Assembly: GCF_044324875.1 (NCBI RefSeq)
Contig: NZ_CP172185.1
Length of the DNA stretch: 64,000 nucleotides
Reading direction: 5' to 3' (one strand)
Source of the DNA: Escherichia coli
GTDB taxonomy: Bacteria; Pseudomonadota; Gammaproteobacteria; Enterobacterales; Enterobacteriaceae
Shown here: positions 23,487 through 56,153 of the stretch, piece by piece
Numbering within the stretch: the stretch's first letter is position 1
Layout: each line of letters starts with the position of its first letter
Position numbers and translations under genes: made by a program
The notes under the pieces: generated by a model
What the model was told of the DNA's origin: nothing
The model's input: the letters and a program-made list of their open reading frames with translations, nothing else
Databases searched by the model: none

Positions 23487-23569
23487 CACACGTCATTGAT
23501 TAAGATCACCACGCGTTACCCGGGTGGTCTTAATCTGTTTATCTCTTTTTCTTTCAAGATATAAATGCA

Positions 23570-44668: not shown

Positions 44669-45310
44669 TTGTATCAGGATAAAATTCTTGTCCGCCAGCT
44701 CGGTCTTCAGCCTTACGAGCCAATCTCCCAGGCTATGCATGAATTCACCGATACCCGCGATGAAAGTACCCTTGATGAAATCTGGCTGGTCGAGCACTAT
44801 CCGGTATTTACCCAAGGGCAGGCAGGAAAAGCGGAGCACATTTTAATGCCGGGTGATATTCCGGTGATTCAGAGCGATCGCGGTGGGCAGGTGACTTATC
44901 ACGGGCCGGGGCAACAGGTGATGTATGTGTTGCTTAACCTGAAACGCCGTAAACTCGGTGTGCGTGAACTGGTGACCTTGCTTGAGCAAACAGTGGTGAA
45001 TACCCTGGCTGAACTGGGTATAGAAGCACATCCTCGGGCTGACGCGCCTGGTGTCTATGTCGGGGAAAAGAAAATTTGCTCACTGGGTTTACGTATTCGA
45101 CGCGGTTGTTCATTCCACGGTCTGGCATTAAACGTCAATATGGATCTTTCACCATTTTTACGTATTAATCCTTGTGGGTATGCCGGAATGGAAATGGCTA
45201 AAATATCACAATGGAAACCCGAAGCGACGACTAATAATATTGCACCACGTTTACTGGAAAATATTTTAGCGCTACTAAACAATCCTGACTTCGAATATAT
45301 TACCGCTTAA
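44669..45310 (+). CDS. lipB: Octanoyltransferase (lipoyl(octanoyl) transferase)
   Basis: 213 aa from TTG start [28 protein letters not shown]... Confidence 0.95.
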
Positions 45311-45569
45311 TTGCATACATCAATGGCCCAATTTACGCTGGGTCATTACTCATAATACCTGCTAATGCTTTACATCTCCTTCGCGTTTGTATATTTTCTT
45401 TATCACTTGCAGAAATGCGATGCTACGCCTTGCTCCGTAACTCACCCCATTGATTAACTTATTGAAATAGTTGATTATGGTGAGCAAAAGCGTTCCGTTC
45501 CAATTAGACATAAGATTATTGTAATTTTTTTTAATATTATTTTTCCATGAATAAAATTGGAGTAAGTGC

Positions 45570-46523
45570 GTGGATAGTAATAATCAAATTGAAACCTGTT
45601 TAAGCAGAAAGTCGTCAGAAGGTAAACCACAAATATTTACAACCTTACGAAATATTGATCTTAACCTTCTGACTATTTTTGAAGCTGTATATGTACATAA
45701 AGGGATCGTTAATGCAGCGAAAGTGCTTAATCTGACACCCTCGGCAATCAGTCAGTCTATTCAGAAACTGCGCGTTATATTCCCTGACCCATTGTTTATT
45801 CGCAAAGGCCAGGGCGTCACTCCTACCGCATTTGCGATGCATCTACATGAGTATATCAGTCAGGGCCTTGAGTCCATTCTTGGCGCGCTGGATATCGAAG
45901 GAAGCTATGATAAGCAACGAACGATAACTATTGCGACCACCCCCTCGGTCGGAGCCCTGGTCCTTCCTGTCATCTATCGGGCGATTAAATCTCACTATCC
46001 GCAGCTTTTACTGCGCAACCCGCCCATCAGCGACGCGGAAAACCAACTCAGTCAGTTTCAAACCGATCTCATCATCGATAACATGTTTTGCACCAATCGT
46101 ACGGTGCAACATCATGTTCTGTTCACCGACAATATGGTGTTAATTTGCCGTGAGGGAAATCCACTACTCTCTTTAGAAGATGACAGGGAGACTATCGACA
46201 ACGCTGCGCATATACTCCTGTTACCGGAAGGGCAAAATTTCAGCGGTCTGCGGCAGAGAGTTCAAGAGATGTTTCCGGACCGGCAAATCAGTTTCACCAG
46301 CTACAACATTTTGACAATCGCTGCACTGGTTGCCAACAGTGACATGTTAGCGATTATTCCCAGCCGTTTTTATAACCTGTTTAGCCGTTGCTGGCCGCTG
46401 GAAAAACTGCCTTTTCCGTCCTTAAATGAGGAGCAAATAGATTTCTCTATCCACTACAACAAATTCAGCCTGCGTGATCCCATCCTGCACGGGGTAATAG
46501 ATGTTATCCGTAATGCATTTTGA
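45570..46523 (+). CDS. ybeF: LysR-family transcriptional regulator
   Basis: 317 aa; N-terminal HTH (LNLTPSAISQSIQKLR) and LysR substrate-binding domain. Confidence 0.9.
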   Translation: MDSNNQIETCLSRKSSEGKPQIFTTLRNIDLNLLTIFEAVYVHKGIVNAAKVLNLTPSAISQSIQKLRVIFPDPLFIRKGQGVTPTAFAMHLHEYISQGLESILGALDIEGSYDKQRTITIATTPSVGALVLPVIYRAIKSHYPQLLLRNPPISDAENQLSQFQTDLIIDNMFCTNRTVQHHVLFTDNMVLICREGNPLLSLEDDRETIDNAAHILLLPEGQNFSGLRQRVQEMFPDRQISFTSYNILTIAALVANSDMLAIIPSRFYNLFSRCWPLEKLPFPSLNEEQIDFSIHYNKFSLRDPILHGVIDVIRNAF

Positions 46524-49013: not shown

Positions 49014-49397
49014 GTGTTACAACTTCTTTTAGCAGTTTTTATTGGCGGTGGTACGGGAAGCGTGGCGAGATGGCTGTTAAGTATGCGATTTAACCCGCTG
49101 CATCAGGCGATTCCGTTGGGGACGCTGGCAGCAAACCTGATTGGGGCATTCATCATAGGAATGGGATTCGCCTGGTTTAGCAGGATGACGAACATTGATC
49201 CAGTGTGGAAAGTATTAATCACCACCGGATTTTGTGGCGGTCTAACAACCTTCTCAACATTTTCGGCAGAAGTGGTGTTTTTGTTACAAGAGGGCCGCTT
49301 TGGCTGGGCGTTACTGAACGTTTTCGTCAACCTTCTGGGGTCTTTTGCCATGACCGCACTGGCTTTCGGGCTGTTTTCCGCCTCAACCGCACACTAA
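49014..49397 (+). CDS. crcB: Fluoride ion channel CrcB/FluC
   Basis: 127 aa [24 protein letters not shown]...[13 protein letters not shown]. Confidence 0.95.
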
Positions 49398-49402
49398 AGA
49401 CC

Positions 49403-49432
49403 AAAAAAAACCCGCTGATTAAGCGGGTTTTG
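49403..49432. terminator. Bidirectional rho-independent terminator between crcB and cspE
   Basis: AAAAAAAACCCGC-tgattaa-GCGGGTTTT. Confidence 0.8.
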
Positions 49433-49450
49433 AATTCTTGCTGACGTATC

Positions 49451-49660
49451 TTACAGAGCGATTACGTTTGCAGCAGAAGGGCCTTTGGCACCGTTAGTGA
49501 TTTCGAACTCTACGCGCTGACCTTCAGCAAGAGTTTTAAAACCATTAGTCTGGATTGCAGAGAAGTGTACGAACACGTCTTTGCTGCCGTCTTCCGGAGT
49601 AATGAAACCGAATCCTTTGGACTCATTAAACCACTTAACGTTACCTTTAATCTTAGACAT
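49451..49660 (-). CDS. cspE: Cold-shock-domain protein CspE
   Basis: 69 aa [37 protein letters not shown]...; ORF-track 97-aa version is an upstream extension. Confidence 0.95.
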
Positions 49661-49834
49661 CAAAATTACCTTTACATGAAAAATAGACACAAATGCTGTG
49701 TCGGTTACCAGTACACCAATTGTGGTACGCTTTGTCCAGTGCAACTTTACTAAAAAGTGATAAAAGTCGCGTTATTTTTGATGTTAATTATTTTACCCAT
49801 TGATTTTAAAGAGTTTACTAAAATTTCATTTGTC

Positions 49835-50395
49835 TCAAAACTGAAAGCGCATCCAGGCAAAGTACACATTGCCATTGTTATAGGTACCCGGAATGTAGGT
49901 CATCTGAAAAGTCACTGGACCATAACCCACAGAGGCCAATGGCAGTAGAACCGGGAGAGGGATGTAATTCCAGTTATCGCGTGCCGTTACGCCAGCGGTG
50001 AATCCCAGTCCTAAATGAAAATTTTCATCTGCCAGCGGTCGCCAGGTACTTTCCCATCCGTATCCGGCAATCGGTTCCCATTTGTTCCACGAGTCCTTAA
50101 ATGCCATGGCATACAGGCCATGCCAGTTTCCTTTTTCATCCCAACGCGACTGACCAAAACCGCCACCCCACGGTCGCTCGTTATAGCGATCGGTTTTTTC
50201 TTTGTCGTAAGCGAAACGTGCATGCCAGGTGATGGCAGGAATATATAAATCATAATGTTCAGGCTGTTGCCAGGTTTGTGCAATATTTTCTCTAAACGTT
50301 GTCATCCACTCATCTGCGTTAGCAAAAACTTTACCAACGCTGATTAACTGAATAAAAACAAAGGAAAAGATAGCGACATATTTACTCACGTTCAT
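49835..50395 (-). CDS. pagP: Lipid A palmitoyltransferase PagP (outer membrane)
   Basis: 186 aa [34 protein letters not shown]...; ORF-track start is 8 codons longer. Confidence 0.93.
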
Positions 50396-50981
50396 TTGTG
50401 ACCATAAAACATTTATCAAAAATCTACTACTAGCATAGCAAAGCTACAATTAACATAACCTTAATAGCCCCAACATAAAGAACAATCTGAATAGCTGCTC
50501 TATTTATTTCCGCTTGTTTAAGTTAAATATTTCCGCGCATCGATTAAAGATGATGTATCGTTTTCTGCTATGGGAATAGTCATAAAAAAACCAAGTCTTT
50601 TTTGATGACAAAATACAACCAAGAAAAAATTACTTTATTTTTTAATAGGATACAAAAAAATCTCTTAACGAAGAATATATTATATATCGTCAACCTATGC
50701 TCATGTTAGATTATTTTTTGAGCGCACAGCCGCAGCTAACACCATTGCAATTAACAAATTTGCATCAATCCACCATCAATTTACACACATTATTATGTGA
50801 TAATTGCCAACCGCTAAATATGCGTTTTGTTATCTATGTATAAAAACAGCAAATTCAATGTCTTAATGGCAGTTTTTCTTGATTTTAATCAGCATTCATC
50901 GCCAATTTATTGGGCATATTTTTTCCTTAAGCTTTAGGAATTTTTTATTATTTACTTTGGGGCCTGGAGACAGGAAAAATT

Positions 50982-52367
50982 ATGCTGACATTCATTGAAC
51001 TCCTTATTGGAGTTGTGGTTATTGTGGGTGTAGCTCGCTACATCATTAAAGGGTATTCCGCCACTGGCGTGTTATTTGTCGGTGGCCTGTTATTGCTGAT
51101 TATCAGTGCCATTATGGGGCACAAAGTGTTACCGTCCAGCCAGGCTTCAACAGGCTACAGCGCCACGGATATCGTTGAATACGTTAAAATATTGCTAATG
51201 AGCCGCGGCGGCGACCTCGGCATGATGATTATGATGCTGTGTGGCTTTGCCGCTTACATGACCCATATCGGCGCGAATGATATGGTGGTCAAGCTGGCGT
51301 CAAAACCATTGCAGTATATTAACTCCCCTTACCTGCTGATGATTGCCGCCTATTTTGTCGCCTGTCTGATGTCTCTGGCCGTCTCTTCCGCGACCGGTCT
51401 GGGTGTTTTGCTGATGGCAACCCTGTTTCCGGTGATGGTAAACGTTGGTATCAGCCGTGGTGCAGCTGCTGCTATTTGTGCCTCCCCGGCGGCGATTATT
51501 CTCGCACCGACTTCAGGGGATGTGGTGCTGGCGGCGCAGGCTTCCGAAATGTCGCTGATTGACTTCGCCTTCAAAACAACGCTGCCTATCTCAATTGCTG
51601 CAATTATCGGCATGGCAATCGCCCACTTCTTCTGGCAACGTTATCTGGATAAAAAAGAACACATCTCTCATGAAATGTTAGATGTCAGTGAAATCACCAC
51701 CACTGCCCCTGCGTTTTATGCCATTTTGCCGTTCACGCCGATCATCGGAGTGCTGATTTTTGACGGCAAATGGGGCCCGCAATTACACATCATCACTATT
51801 CTGGTGATTTGTATGCTGATTGCCTCCATTCTGGAGTTCATCCGCAGCTTTAATACCCAGAAAGTTTTCTCTGGTCTGGAAGTGGCTTATCGCGGGATGG
51901 CAGATGCATTTGCAAACGTGGTGATGCTGCTGGTTGCCGCTGGGGTATTCGCTCAGGGGCTTAGCACCATCGGCTTTATTCAAAGTCTGATTTCTATCGC
52001 TACCTCGTTTGGTTCGGCGAGCATCATCCTGATGCTGGTATTGGTGATCCTGACAATGCTGGCGGCAGTCACGACCGGTTCAGGCAATGCGCCGTTTTAT
52101 GCGTTTGTTGAGATGATCCCGAAACTGGCGCACTCTTCCGGCATTAACCCGGCGTATTTGACTATCCCAATGCTGCAGGCGTCAAACCTCGGCCGTACCC
52201 TGTCACCCGTTTCTGGCGTAGTCGTTGCGGTTGCCGGGATGGCGAAAATCTCACCATTTGAAGTCGTAAAACGCACCTCGGTGCCGGTGCTTGTTGGGCT
52301 GGTGATTGTTATCGTTGCTACAGAGCTGATGGTGCCAGGAACGGCAGCCGCGGTCACAGGCAAGTAA
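50982..52367 (+). CDS. dcuC: Anaerobic C4-dicarboxylate transporter DcuC
   Basis: 461 aa multi-TM MLTFIELLIGVVVIVGVARYIIKGYSATGVL... Confidence 0.95.
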   Translation: MLTFIELLIGVVVIVGVARYIIKGYSATGVLFVGGLLLLIISAIMGHKVLPSSQASTGYSATDIVEYVKILLMSRGGDLGMMIMMLCGFAAYMTHIGANDMVVKLASKPLQYINSPYLLMIAAYFVACLMSLAVSSATGLGVLLMATLFPVMVNVGISRGAAAAICASPAAIILAPTSGDVVLAAQASEMSLIDFAFKTTLPISIAAIIGMAIAHFFWQRYLDKKEHISHEMLDVSEITTTAPAFYAILPFTPIIGVLIFDGKWGPQLHIITILVICMLIASILEFIRSFNTQKVFSGLEVAYRGMADAFANVVMLLVAAGVFAQGLSTIGFIQSLISIATSFGSASIILMLVLVILTMLAAVTTGSGNAPFYAFVEMIPKLAHSSGINPAYLTIPMLQASNLGRTLSPVSGVVVAVAGMAKISPFEVVKRTSVPVLVGLVIVIVATELMVPGTAAAVTGK

Positions 52368-53088: not shown

Positions 53089-54715
53089 TAGGTTTCACTT
53101 TCGGAATATAGATTGAAAATAAGGTACCGCAGGGATCATTATCTTCGAGAGTGATAACACCACCGCAGCGCGTTACGTAGCTGGCAATCAAGTACAACCC
53201 AATGCCATGTTCGCCGGGCTCGTCAGCACGCGTACTGACACCCTGCTCAAATATTTTGTCTCGTAGAGACTCTGGAACGCCGCAGCCCTGATCGGCGACT
53301 TCAATCACCACATCATCGCCTTCATCGCTGAGGAATAATTCAACGATCTTGTTTCCTTCATCGCTACGCAGGCTGGCTTCGAAGGCGTTATCAAGTAAAT
53401 TGCCAACAATGGCTGCAAACTCGGTGCTGTCCAGTCCTGGCGGCAGTTGCGAAAGCTGACTTCCGGGGACGATGACCATTTTTAGCCCCAGTTCGCGGGC
53501 GCGCTGCACTTTACCAAAAAGCAGCCCCGCCACCTGGCGATCGGCAAACGCCTCGCGCAGGCTATCAATAAGCTGTTGCTGGGCCTGAGACTCCCCCTGC
53601 ACCATCGCCAACACGCGATCATACTCTTTCATCTGCAACAGACCATTGAGCGTCGACATCCAATTGAGATGCTCGTGTCGCAATGTGCGCAGGCTCTCGA
53701 CGTATTGTTTAATTTGCGTCAGTTGCGCATTGAGGGTGGATATTTCGTCTTTACTACGAAAGCTGATAATGGCCCCCAGCAAATCATCACCAGAACGAAT
53801 AGCTTCCCGGTTGGCAATAACGCTCAGACCGTTAAAGTTCGCCACCACATCCTGACGTTTTTCATCAATCTGTTCGGTAAAGAAATCGGCGGGCCTGACC
53901 ACTTCAGCAATGGGTTTACCCAACCATTGCCGTCCGGGGGAACTCAGACCCAGCATCTTTCTTGCGTTACGATTGATGGCGGTAATGTAACCATGCGGAT
54001 CCACCGCAATGAGCCCTTCATAAACCGAACTAAACAGCGCCTCTTGCTGACGGACCACGCGTGCGATTTGCTTTGGCTCCATGCCCATCATCTGCCGACG
54101 GATATGCGCGGCCAGGAACCACGACAGCAACATCAGAATCCCTAACAGCACGACAAACACGCCAGCCATCGGTAATAAAAACTCAGCCCGCCAGCTATCG
54201 ATTTTACTCACCAGGTAGCCAATCGACACCACGCCGATGACTTTTCCATCGTCATCAAAGATTGGCGTTTTGGCACGCATCGCCATGCCAATTGACCCTT
54301 TCCCGGTGATGAAGTAGCTCTCCCCTTTCTCCAGCGCGCCCGGTTTGGTGAACTGCATAGGATAACCAATTTTCTCCGGATTAGGATGGTAAAGACGAAT
54401 CGAGTGCCGATCGCCAATCACCACATAATCGAAATCAGTATCTCTTTGTAATTTGTTAGCGATGGTCGCCAGCCTCTTGTAGTCACGCGTTTTCACTGCG
54501 CTGATGATACTGTCATTAGAAGCAATAATTTTTGCCTGATTCATTGCCATGTCGCGCACATGAAGCGTTAAATAGTCCTCAAAACTGGCCGTAAAATATT
54601 GCGCCAGGGCTGCAATGACAAATATTGAGAACACCAGAATCAGCAAAAAGATACGCAGCGGAAATGCCAGTCTTTGGAAAAATGCAAACTGTTTATTCTC
54701 GTTAAGCTGCAACAT
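53057..54715 (-). CDS. dpiB: Sensor histidine kinase DpiB (CitA)
   Basis: 552 aa from ATG (reverse complement at 54713-54715) MLQLNENKQFAFFQRLAFPLRIFLL...; two TMs, periplasmic sensor, HATPase; overlaps dpiA by 32 bp. Confidence 0.93.
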   Translation of the reverse strand: MLQLNENKQFAFFQRLAFPLRIFLLILVFSIFVIAALAQYFTASFEDYLTLHVRDMAMNQAKIIASNDSIISAVKTRDYKRLATIANKLQRDTDFDYVVIGDRHSIRLYHPNPEKIGYPMQFTKPGALEKGESYFITGKGSIGMAMRAKTPIFDDDGKVIGVVSIGYLVSKIDSWRAEFLLPMAGVFVVLLGILMLLSWFLAAHIRRQMMGMEPKQIARVVRQQEALFSSVYEGLIAVDPHGYITAINRNARKMLGLSSPGRQWLGKPIAEVVRPADFFTEQIDEKRQDVVANFNGLSVIANREAIRSGDDLLGAIISFRSKDEISTLNAQLTQIKQYVESLRTLRHEHLNWMSTLNGLLQMKEYDRVLAMVQGESQAQQQLIDSLREAFADRQVAGLLFGKVQRARELGLKMVIVPGSQLSQLPPGLDSTEFAAIVGNLLDNAFEASLRSDEGNKIVELFLSDEGDDVVIEVADQGCGVPESLRDKIFEQGVSTRADEPGEHGIGLYLIASYVTRCGGVITLEDNDPCGTLFSIYIPKVKPNDSSINPIDR

Positions 54716-54775
54716 TGTTTTCCTTGCGGGTTGTCCCGAGCCTCTTTGACGGATGTAATTAAAATGTTGAATCAA

Positions 54776-55094
54776 AATACATAGATATTAAATATAATCG
54801 TGGCAAATTTTATTCATTAAATCAATTAAATCACTTAAACCTGCGGGTCATTTCGTAATTACATTAATTAAAAAACTTAAAACCATTAAATAAATAAAAA
54901 ACCACTAACTCTATGTGAAATAAATCAAAATTTCACGCTGCAATACTCCTTAGGATGTATAGCGAAAGGAGAAAAAGATATACCTCGATCGCCCCCCTTT
55001 CTCCCAAGTGAAAATAAAAGGTTATCAGTTTGCAACATCGAACAACATTCGTTGCAAATCGATAACAACATGCACCTTCAGGATACTATTTATT
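54776..55094. promoter_or_regulatory. AT-rich divergent dpiB/citC control region with reiterated TTAAAT/ATTAA motifs
   Basis: Multiple copies of AAATCAATTAAATCACTTAAA / ATTAATTAAAAAACTTAAAACCATTAAATAAATAAAAAACC between divergent operons; plausible DpiA/CRP/Fnr binding area. Confidence 0.35.
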
Positions 55095-56153
55095 ATGTTC
55101 GGCAATGATATTTTCACCCGTGTAAAACGTTCAGAAAATAAAAAAATGGCGGAAATCGCCCAATTCCTGCATGAAAATGATTTGAGCGTTGACACCACAG
55201 TCGAAGTATTTATTACCGTAACCCGCGATGAAAAGCTTATCGCGTGCGGTGGAATTGCCGGAAATATTATTAAATGCGTTGCTATCAGTGAATCCGTTCG
55301 CGGTGAAGGACTGGCGCTGACATTAGCCACCGAGCTAATTAACCTCGCCTATGAGCGGCACAGCACGCATCTGTTTATTTATACCAAAACCGAATACGAG
55401 GCGCTGTTCCGCCAGTGCGGTTTTTCCACGCTGACCAGTGTACCCGGCGTGATGGTGCTGATGGAAAACAGCGCCACGCGACTGAAACGCTATGCCGAAT
55501 CGCTGAAAAAATTTCGTCATCCAGGGAACAAGATTGGCTGCATTGTGATGAACGCCAATCCCTTTACGAATGGTCACCGTTATCTGATTCAACAGGCTGC
55601 AGCACAGTGCGACTGGTTGCATCTGTTTTTAGTTAAAGAAGATTCTTCACGCTTTCCCTATGAAGACCGGCTGGATCTGGTGTTAACAGGCACCGCCGAT
55701 ATTCCACGCCTGACTGTGCATCGCGGCTCCGAATACATCATCTCCCGCGCTACGTTCCCTTGCTACTTCATTAAAGAACAGAGCGTCATTAACCATTGTT
55801 ACACCGAAATTGATCTGAAGATTTTCCGTCAGTACCTCGCTCCCGCGCTGGGTGTAACTCACCGCTTTGTCGGTACTGAACCCTTTTGTCGCGTTACCGC
55901 CCAGTACAACCAGGATATGCGCTACTGGCTGGAAACGCCGACTATCTCCGCACCGCCCATCGAACTGGTTGAAATTGAGCGGCTGCGTTACCAGGAGATG
56001 CCGATATCCGCTTCCCGGGTACGTCAACTGCTGGCGAAAAACGATCTCACGGCTATCGCGCCGCTGGTCCCTGCAGTCACGCTGCATTATTTGCAGAACC
56101 TGCTTGAGCACTCCCGCCAGGACGCGGCAGCTCGTCAAAAGACCCCCGCATGA
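55095..56153 (+). CDS. citC: [Citrate (pro-3S)-lyase] ligase
   Basis: 352 aa from ATG 55095 MFGNDIFTRVKRSENKKMAEIAQFL...; first gene of citCDEFXG. Confidence 0.93.
   Translation: MFGNDIFTRVKRSENKKMAEIAQFLHENDLSVDTTVEVFITVTRDEKLIACGGIAGNIIKCVAISESVRGEGLALTLATELINLAYERHSTHLFIYTKTEYEALFRQCGFSTLTSVPGVMVLMENSATRLKRYAESLKKFRHPGNKIGCIVMNANPFTNGHRYLIQQAAAQCDWLHLFLVKEDSSRFPYEDRLDLVLTGTADIPRLTVHRGSEYIISRATFPCYFIKEQSVINHCYTEIDLKIFRQYLAPALGVTHRFVGTEPFCRVTAQYNQDMRYWLETPTISAPPIELVEIERLRYQEMPISASRVRQLLAKNDLTAIAPLVPAVTLHYLQNLLEHSRQDAAARQKTPA

Follow-up and report, generated by a model that had tools for sequence, protein, structure and literature searches.

The AT-rich spacer between pagP and dcuC in Escherichia coli: a probable shared control region with constrained promoter ends and a fast-evolving centre

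The pagP and dcuC genes of Escherichia coli are transcribed away from each other across a long and very AT-rich spacer, and the question raised by this locus is how such a spacer serves the two genes. The spacer was examined on one strand of a 64,000-nucleotide stretch of E. coli DNA (contig NZ_CP172185.1; the window), in which the gene order is crcB, cspE, pagP, dcuC, dpiA, dpiB, inverted relative to that of the E. coli chromosome of MG1655. The region picked out in the first-pass annotation proved to be the exact pagP-dcuC intergenic spacer, with both gene starts divergent (Table 1). RefSeq likewise places an empty spacer between pagP and dcuC in both MG1655 and strain NY1601; the NY1601 spacer has 99.8% identity to that of the window, and the MG1655 counterpart is a 588-bp interval between b0621 and b0622 (NC_000913.3 655969-656556). 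A longer pagP ORF with a TTG start, reaching 50419, was rejected as a mechanical call only. The spacer is the pagP/dcuC control region already characterised by K-12 genetics and ChIP, and it is real, statistically extreme and ordinary. The reading developed here, to which we assign a probability of roughly 85%, is that it forms a shared control region with two compact promoter modules at its ends and a fast-evolving AT-rich centre.

The GC content of the spacer was 0.305, compared with 0.506 window-wide, and a value as low was found in just 0.1% of 586-bp segments. The minimum for segments of this length was 0.300, at 50370-50955, which substantiated the earlier statement that the region was far more AT-rich than its surroundings. 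Twelve runs of A or T of at least 5 bases were present. The spacer was also the longest gap among annotated genes in the 50 kb compared, the runners-up being 396, 380 and 378 bp. The view that it holds no credible ORF was upheld: frameshifts or stops disrupted all seven mechanical ORFs in the spacer (25-48 aa) in other Escherichia, and for five of them this was so even within E. coli. The two that were intact across all E. coli strains examined both lie inside the near-invariant dcuC promoter segment, and their intactness is uninformative because that segment hardly varies. A small-ORF hypothesis was ruled out, every spacer ORF being broken in relatives. No tandem or dispersed repeats were found in the spacer, and an Rfam search of 49300-51300 at a permissive threshold returned no match in it. 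No intrinsic terminator was found inside the spacer, terminator-like sites falling only within dcuC, and a relaxed terminator scan of the spacer detected weak hairpins only.

Table 1. Features of the pagP-dcuC locus, in window coordinates
Feature	Position	Strand	Details
pagP, lipid A palmitoyltransferase, 186 aa	49835-50395	-	ATG at 50395; product begins MNVSKY
H-NS ChIP-chip region, U00096.2 655584-656283	~49892-50591		published K-12 data, mapped
pagP-dcuC divergent intergenic control region	50396-50981		586 bp, GC 0.305
Second PhoP-like match TTTTTGATAAATGTTTTAT	50404-50422	-	overlaps predicted pagP start site and leader
Alternative candidate pagP -10 TAGATT	50421-50426	-	22 nt downstream of PhoP box; Salmonella-like layout
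Candidate pagP -10 TATGCT	50432-50437	-	11 nt downstream of PhoP box; read from sequence
Anaerobic sigma-70 ChIP-seq peak, U00096.2 655742	~50433		published K-12; 38 bp before pagP ATG
Imperfect palindrome TAGCAAAGCTA	50436-50446		by eye; putative SlyA-like, one extra base
Candidate PhoP box CTATTAAGGTTATGTTAAT	50449-50467	-	direct orientation relative to pagP
Hypervariable AT-rich centre	50556-50745		~190 bp; unalignable across Escherichia species; Citrobacter lacks ~120 bp
H-NS ChIP-chip region, U00096.2 654590-655558	50615-51583		published K-12 data, mapped
ArcA box TTGATGCAAATTTGTTAA	50751-50768	-	~167 bp upstream of predicted dcuC start
Second ArcA-like box TTGTTATCTATGTATAAA	50827-50844	+	13.3 bits; 20% of shuffles reach score
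FNR ChIP peak centre, U00096.2 655340	~50833		published K-12
FNR ChIP peak centre, U00096.2 655298	~50875		published K-12
FNR box TTGATTTTAATCAG	50879-50892		9/10 consensus positions; centre 50885.5
Candidate dcuC -10 hexamer CATATT	50915-50920	+	read from sequence
Predicted dcuC 5' leader, ~55 nt	50927-50981	+	FNR box/-10 geometry; Shine-Dalgarno AGGA 50972-50975
Anaerobic sigma-70 ChIP-seq peak, U00096.2 655235	~50938		published K-12; 44 bp before dcuC ATG
dcuC, anaerobic C4-dicarboxylate transporter, 461 aa	50982-52367	+	ATG at 50982

The first-pass annotation had expected PhoP, FNR and ArcA to act here and had proposed scans with matrices for these regulators; such scans were performed, and candidate sites were placed for each. 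With an FNR matrix derived from 15 other published sites, the box at the dcuC end scored 13.1 bits, the second best score in the entire window, which was reached by 1.5% of dinucleotide shuffles of the spacer. This box is the published site at U00096.2 655281, given as CTGATTAAAATCAA on the other strand and bound in K-12 by ChIP (Myers et al. 2013). The coordinates of Myers et al. are those of U00096.2; an offset of +777 to NC_000913.3 was derived from the FNR site itself (655281 to 656058), and window positions were then obtained by subtracting the NC_000913.3 coordinate from 706950 on the dcuC side or from 706952 on the pagP side. The FNR peak was equal in the wild type and an hns/stpA mutant. 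Expression of dcuC is FNR activated by RNA-seq, and the anaerobic level was 20-fold higher for dcuC and 3.4-fold higher for crcA (pagP). FNR action at this spacer was supported by a published box under a ChIP-seq peak, and ChIP-chip peaks have been published as well. Neither the FNR box nor the -10 block varied among 7 E. coli strains, and both were conserved in 3 Citrobacter and 2 other Escherichia species; the block around the candidate dcuC -10, TTATT(G/C)GGCA(T/C)ATTTT, retained its conservation as far as Citrobacter.

The spacing between the FNR box and the candidate -10 hexamer would place the dcuC start near 50927 and would centre the box at -41.5, the class II position. Activators in a class II layout occupy DNA that overlaps the -35 position and make direct contact with RNA polymerase. 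The dcuC end resembles class II FNR-activated promoters in its near-consensus TTGAT-N4-ATCAA box and in the spacing of that box from a -10-like hexamer, which would give the -41.5 centre relative to the predicted start; FNR occupancy in vivo and anaerobic induction, likewise features of such promoters, are documented for dcuC in published work. Myers et al. label dcuC 'TSS not in peak region'. Folding of the predicted dcuC leader was not significant (z = +1.57). The dcuC ribosome-binding site could be masked by an inverted repeat (50914-50927 / 50972-50985), which was not clearly conserved in other species and would be relevant only to transcripts starting upstream of the predicted start.

An ArcA matrix was built from 115 published ArcA boxes, the 18-bp box consisting of two direct repeats 11 bp apart. 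The box upstream of the FNR site scored 16.0 bits, slightly above the 15.8 averaged by the training sites, and 2.3% of shuffles reached this score. It agrees with a remark by Park et al. on a dcuC/crcA spacer site of more than 15 bits, although no ArcA ChIP peak was present there in that study. The box was conserved across Escherichia species and absent from Citrobacter, and the block holding the second, weaker ArcA-like box was also conserved in Escherichia species. In an arcA mutant, expression fell 4.1-fold for dcuC and 2.8-fold for pagP. With the 16.0-bit box and the mutant effects speaking for it and the missing ChIP peak in the published study against it, ArcA plausibly acts in the spacer, as the first-pass annotation expected, and may bind it directly.

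At the pagP end, a PhoP matrix built from 20 published boxes gave a candidate box of 13.5 bits, a score that is weak alone (11.5% of shuffles reached it). Its sequence, TATTAA-N5-TGTTAA, is degenerate, with 9 of 12 positions of (T/G)GTTTA-N5-(T/G)GTTTA. It is probably the counterpart of the footprinted Salmonella pagP box, CTGTTTATAGTTTGTTAAG. The upstream half-site was conserved in Escherichia species and Citrobacter, and an O157 strain and E. albertii (CTGTTAAGGTTATGTTTAT) have better PhoP boxes at this position. Phosphorylated PhoP gel-shifts a Shigella pagP upstream fragment, and a phoPQ mutant has reduced pagP expression. These published binding and expression data, together with the Salmonella-like box, bore out the earlier expectation that PhoP acts on pagP. 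A second PhoP-like match had a slightly higher score (14.0 bits, reached by 8.5% of shuffles) and is possibly due to chance.

Two candidate -10 elements lie downstream of the PhoP box. In Salmonella pagP, the DNase-footprinted PhoP box is 23 nt from the -10 and the start is 16 nt from the ATG, and the published E. coli crcA PhoP site is 32 bp from the start site, compared to 44 bp in Salmonella. With the TATGCT element, transcription would start near 50425 and the leader would be ~31 nt long, which fits the 32-bp crcA spacing; with the TAGATT element, the start would fall near 50414 and the leader would be ~18-19 nt. The sigma-70 peak near pagP was ten-fold stronger anaerobically (366 versus 37). 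The Salmonella pagP promoter (PhoP architecture IV; Zwir et al. 2012) is similar in its direct-orientation box of closely similar sequence, its weak -10 and its short leader. It differs in that the E. coli box is more degenerate and that no counterpart was found of a second footprinted Salmonella box.

Further regulators were examined by consensus scans for SlyA, H-NS, RcsAB/RcsB, CRP, IHF, NarL, GadE and a DcuR-like word. An ungapped SlyA consensus with up to 3 mismatches had no match in the spacer. The imperfect palindrome next to the PhoP box resembles the SlyA consensus TTAGCAAGCTAA with one extra base. Three putative SlyA sites upstream of pagP are reported in one paper. The H-NS high-affinity motif, RcsAB/RcsB, CRP, IHF, NarL, the GadE box and the DcuR-like word gave nothing above shuffles in the spacer. 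A loose Fis pattern matched 4 sites, compared to ~0.4 expected, and was distrusted, as the pattern is too degenerate.

The long 5' leaders suggested in the first-pass annotation did not survive. The predicted leaders are short at both ends (~18-31 nt for pagP and ~55 nt for dcuC), and the published sigma-70 peaks adjoin the gene starts, each within ~10 bp of a predicted core promoter. Because these peaks coincide with the predicted core promoters, both promoters appear to hug their genes, and the long-leader claim is therefore unsupported, although the exact -10 elements and start sites are positions that we infer. No entry near the predicted dcuC or pagP starts was found in a Cappable-seq supplement. 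A strict sigma-70 consensus scan detected 0 promoters in the spacer, compared to 3.4 expected from shuffles, and the named -10 elements are therefore to be regarded as weak, activator-dependent candidates.

The first-pass annotation had considered the spacer typical of a nucleoid-protein-bound regulatory region. Published H-NS ChIP-chip data for K-12 include two regions at this locus, which once mapped together span the whole spacer and extend into pagP and dcuC. Expression of pagP is up 18-fold in an hns mutant of K-12. Occupancy by H-NS and this derepression corroborate the nucleoid-protein claim, and the outcome is the opposite of an absence of regulator occupancy, such occupancy being documented in published K-12 data. 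The site table of the FNR paper gives 'None' for nucleoid-protein enrichment at the dcuC FNR site, yet its H-NS table spans the position. All cited occupancy and mutant experiments were performed in K-12, to which the centre of the window spacer is only ~90% identical, and H-NS occupancy of the window allele would follow by homology with K-12.

Several inputs to pagP besides H-NS have been reported, namely, SlyA, RcsB/GadE, PhoP and EvgA. Expression requires SlyA; RcsB/GadE are needed in biofilm and at high ionic strength, and PhoP and EvgA are needed at low magnesium. In its AT-richness, published extended H-NS occupancy and strong hns derepression, the spacer resembles H-NS-silenced and counter-silenced promoters (pagP, gadA/gadB), and it resembles them also in relief by SlyA, RcsB/GadE and PhoP, as published for pagP. 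Unlike recently acquired silenced DNA, pagP belongs to the core genes of both Escherichia and Citrobacter. A further difference from a typical silenced region is that the H-NS-coated spacer also holds the dcuC promoter, whose activator binds equally with or without H-NS.

The spacer was then compared between genomes. A pattern scan across genomes recovered 13 pagP loci, none of them from Salmonella, Klebsiella or E. coli, and the cross-genus footprint was drawn from 3 Citrobacter, 2 further Escherichia species and a partial sequence of E. albertii. The divergent layout and a low GC content (0.29-0.35) were kept in all species recovered with both genes. Spacer lengths were 558 bp in E. whittamii, 574 bp in Escherichia sp. 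E1V33 and 461-465 bp in the three Citrobacter. Across genera, the alignment retained the FNR box and its flanks, the dcuC -10 block, the ribosome-binding region and the upstream PhoP half-site. Within Escherichia alone, conservation extended to the ArcA boxes and to the block 50750-50870. Between species, ~50500-50745 was unalignable, and ~120 bp of that stretch was missing in Citrobacter.

A similar partition was detected within E. coli. Among 7 strains, the mean pairwise divergence was 0.073 at the fourfold-degenerate sites of pagP and dcuC; the 236 bp next to dcuC (0.024) and the 160 bp next to pagP (0.047) fell below this value, and the central 190 bp (0.109) exceeded it. Among 5426 complete genomes, the dcuC-proximal part had at least 95% identity in all 5378 genomes with a match. 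The centre was at least 95% identical to that of the window in 141 genomes and 80-95% identical in 3069, and in ~2170 it was too diverged for megablast detection. The window thus carries a rare centre allele, given that just 141 of the 5426 complete genomes reach 95% identity. The K-12 dcuC-pagP (crcA) region has the same genes in the same divergent layout and nearly the same length (588 versus 586 bp), and its FNR, ArcA and PhoP boxes, like its two promoter-proximal segments, recur unchanged or almost unchanged in the window; only 5 of the 27 differences between the two alleles fall outside 50556-50705. Between K-12 and an O157 strain, 1.2% of fourfold sites differ in the flanking genes, compared to 15% of positions in the centre, and this disparity points to centre alleles that are apparently mosaic. 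The sharp contrast between constrained promoter ends and a hypervariable, apparently mosaic centre is a mildly new observation.

These data suggested the following arrangement for the shared control region. The dcuC end would be a sigma-70 promoter with its -10 at CATATT, switched on anaerobically by FNR from the class II position, and the upstream ArcA box, perhaps together with the second ArcA-like box, would add ArcA-dependent stimulation. At the pagP end, the PhoP box would stand just upstream of a weak -10 (TATGCT or TAGATT), and the promoter would be held low by H-NS coating the entire AT-rich spacer and spreading into both genes. Relief from this silencing would come from PhoP when magnesium is low, and from SlyA and RcsB/GadE in biofilm or under high osmolarity. 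The centre would keep its base composition, not its sequence, and may act as an H-NS substrate and as spacing between the two promoters. Of the components of this arrangement, published K-12 experiments have demonstrated occupancy by H-NS and FNR, the sigma-70 peaks and the consequences of regulator mutations; the exact -10 elements and start sites are predictions, and ArcA binding and the role of the centre are putative.

A part of this arrangement that could be read otherwise is the centre, which may be inert filler that drifts at a neutral or faster rate, is AT-rich by mutational bias and binds H-NS incidentally, with regulation confined to the promoter-proximal modules. The centre diverged 1.5 times as much as the fourfold-degenerate sites of the flanking genes, and it held no motif above chance. 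It cannot be aligned between species, Citrobacter copes with ~120 bp less, and published FNR occupancy is indifferent to loss of hns/stpA. Set against these points, every spacer examined in Escherichia and Citrobacter had a low GC content although its sequence had turned over completely, and in K-12 H-NS enrichment is continuous across the centre and pagP is strongly H-NS silenced. The spacer also exhibited an AA/TT dinucleotide periodicity of 11.4 bp that was reached by 0 of 300 mononucleotide shuffles, which is a weak test. We regard the filler explanation as a tentative possibility, with a probability below even.

A more elaborate role for the centre is that of a recombining cassette whose alleles tune pagP silencing and lipid A palmitoylation by lineage, or which yields a lineage-specific, Ssr31-like transcript; this idea is speculative and, in our estimation, improbable, the hint in its favour being the mosaic divergence between K-12 and O157 together with the rare allele in the window. 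Still less credence is given to the proposal that the centre encodes a small RNA on the pagP strand, the Shigella candidate Ssr31, or a distal pagP promoter with a long leader. A study of Shigella flexneri 301 listed Ssr31 as a predicted RNA of ~295 nt (694274 to 693980) that lies between pagP and dcuC on the strand of pagP and is positive by RT-PCR. On the basis of length, a span of 295 nt may fit 50878-50584 on the minus strand, from a -10-like TAAAAT in the FNR box to a seven-T run (50590-50584), and a perfect TATAAT is present on the minus strand at 50679-50684. The Ssr31 prediction, however, was made from computed promoter and terminator matches with RT-PCR, the northern blot and 5'-end mapping in that paper being for Ssr1 only. 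The span had no Rfam family match and no real terminator, as the best hairpin before the T run was -3.8 kcal/mol, and the seven-T run itself was interrupted in the K-12, O157 and B2 alleles. Folding of the span was no better than that of shuffled sequences (z = +0.53 and -0.68). The span also takes in the hypervariable centre with its many indels, for which other Escherichia species give no alignment and part of which Citrobacter lacks, and the sigma-70 peaks lie near the two gene starts rather than mid-spacer. Overall, an Ssr31 small RNA in this spacer is unlikely.

A sigma-54 (RpoN) promoter served by NtrC is scarcely credible: RpoN holoenzyme and NtrC bind the dcuC/pagP spacer in genomic SELEX in vitro, with peak intensities of 35-50%, but the obligatory GG-N10-GC core of -24/-12 promoters was absent from both strands of the spacer. 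AT-rich DNA often scores in SELEX-type screens in vitro, which counts against this reading.

For the shared control region, the analysis placed the FNR and ArcA boxes, and a candidate PhoP box, to the base on the sequence of the window strain, and it corrected the idea of long leaders. Palmitoylation of lipid A by PagP is linked to antimicrobial-peptide resistance, less inflammatory signalling and biofilm survival. Within E. coli, the centre ranks among the more polymorphic stretches of the locus, with the ends alone constrained, and its polymorphism would matter only if its alleles alter pagP silencing. The sole real Rfam match in 49300-51300 was a cspA-type element, located in the cspE leader.

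The centre of the spacer between the divergent pagP and dcuC genes (50396-50981) was compared with its counterparts in complete E. coli genomes, and the window was found to carry a rare allele. Only 2 of 5,426 complete genomes had a centre with at least 99% identity to this allele, and at least 95% identity was detected in 141. A comparison of K-12 with an O157 strain indicated differences at 15% of centre positions, whereas the genes on either side differed at 1.2% of their fourfold sites, and this disparity suggests that the centre has been subject to recombination or allele switching.

Location of the rare allele in the window and the loci of other genomes (L handles) listed with it
Feature	Window position	Loci
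Rare centre allele	50556-50745	L001, L004-L008

Interruption of the spacer was rare in natural populations, with an intact spacer being present in 5,375 of 5,381 genomes. In the urine isolate E. coli MINF_8D (locus L003, 4001-5250), an IS1 element was located ∼150 bp into the spacer, corresponding to a window position of about 50545; dcuC, dpiA and dpiB were deleted from this isolate and hence pagP now faces citC. Recurrent IS5 insertions in the pagP-dcuC spacer have been reported for laboratory evolution under kanamycin selection (PMC6307192).

A strict sigma-70 consensus scan of 50250-51100 detected no promoter-like sites, compared to 3.4 ± 2.0 in dinucleotide shuffles, which may hint that strong constitutive promoters are avoided in this AT-rich DNA. 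Within the same interval, AA/TT dinucleotides exhibited an 11.4-bp periodicity exceeding that of mononucleotide shuffles. At the dcuC end of the spacer, a 14-nt inverted repeat (arms at 50914-50927 and 50972-50985; 93% complementary) pairs the −10/start region of dcuC with its Shine-Dalgarno sequence and AUG. Masking of the ribosome-binding site by this repeat could occur only on transcripts starting upstream of the predicted dcuC start, and the repeat lacked clear conservation in Citrobacter.

The dpiB-citC divergent spacer (54630-55215) had a GC content of 0.343, the joint second lowest in the window. The ArcA matrix reached its window-wide maximum in this spacer (18.9 bits; plus strand, 54753), and a PhoP-matrix match there scored 15.4 bits at 54886. 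It appears to represent a second AT-rich control region comparable to pagP-dcuC. The tied stretch (45128-45713; 0.343) comprised the lipB-ybeF spacer together with the beginning of ybeF, whose product is a LysR-type regulator.

The cspE 5' leader (49403-49761, minus strand) matched the Rfam cspA thermoregulator (RF01766) with 123 bits versus a gathering score of 78, and the match spanned the full model length. The FNR-matrix maximum of the window, TTGATTAAGATCAC (15.0 bits, 23496-23509), was located within ybeZ, towards the end of the coding sequence.
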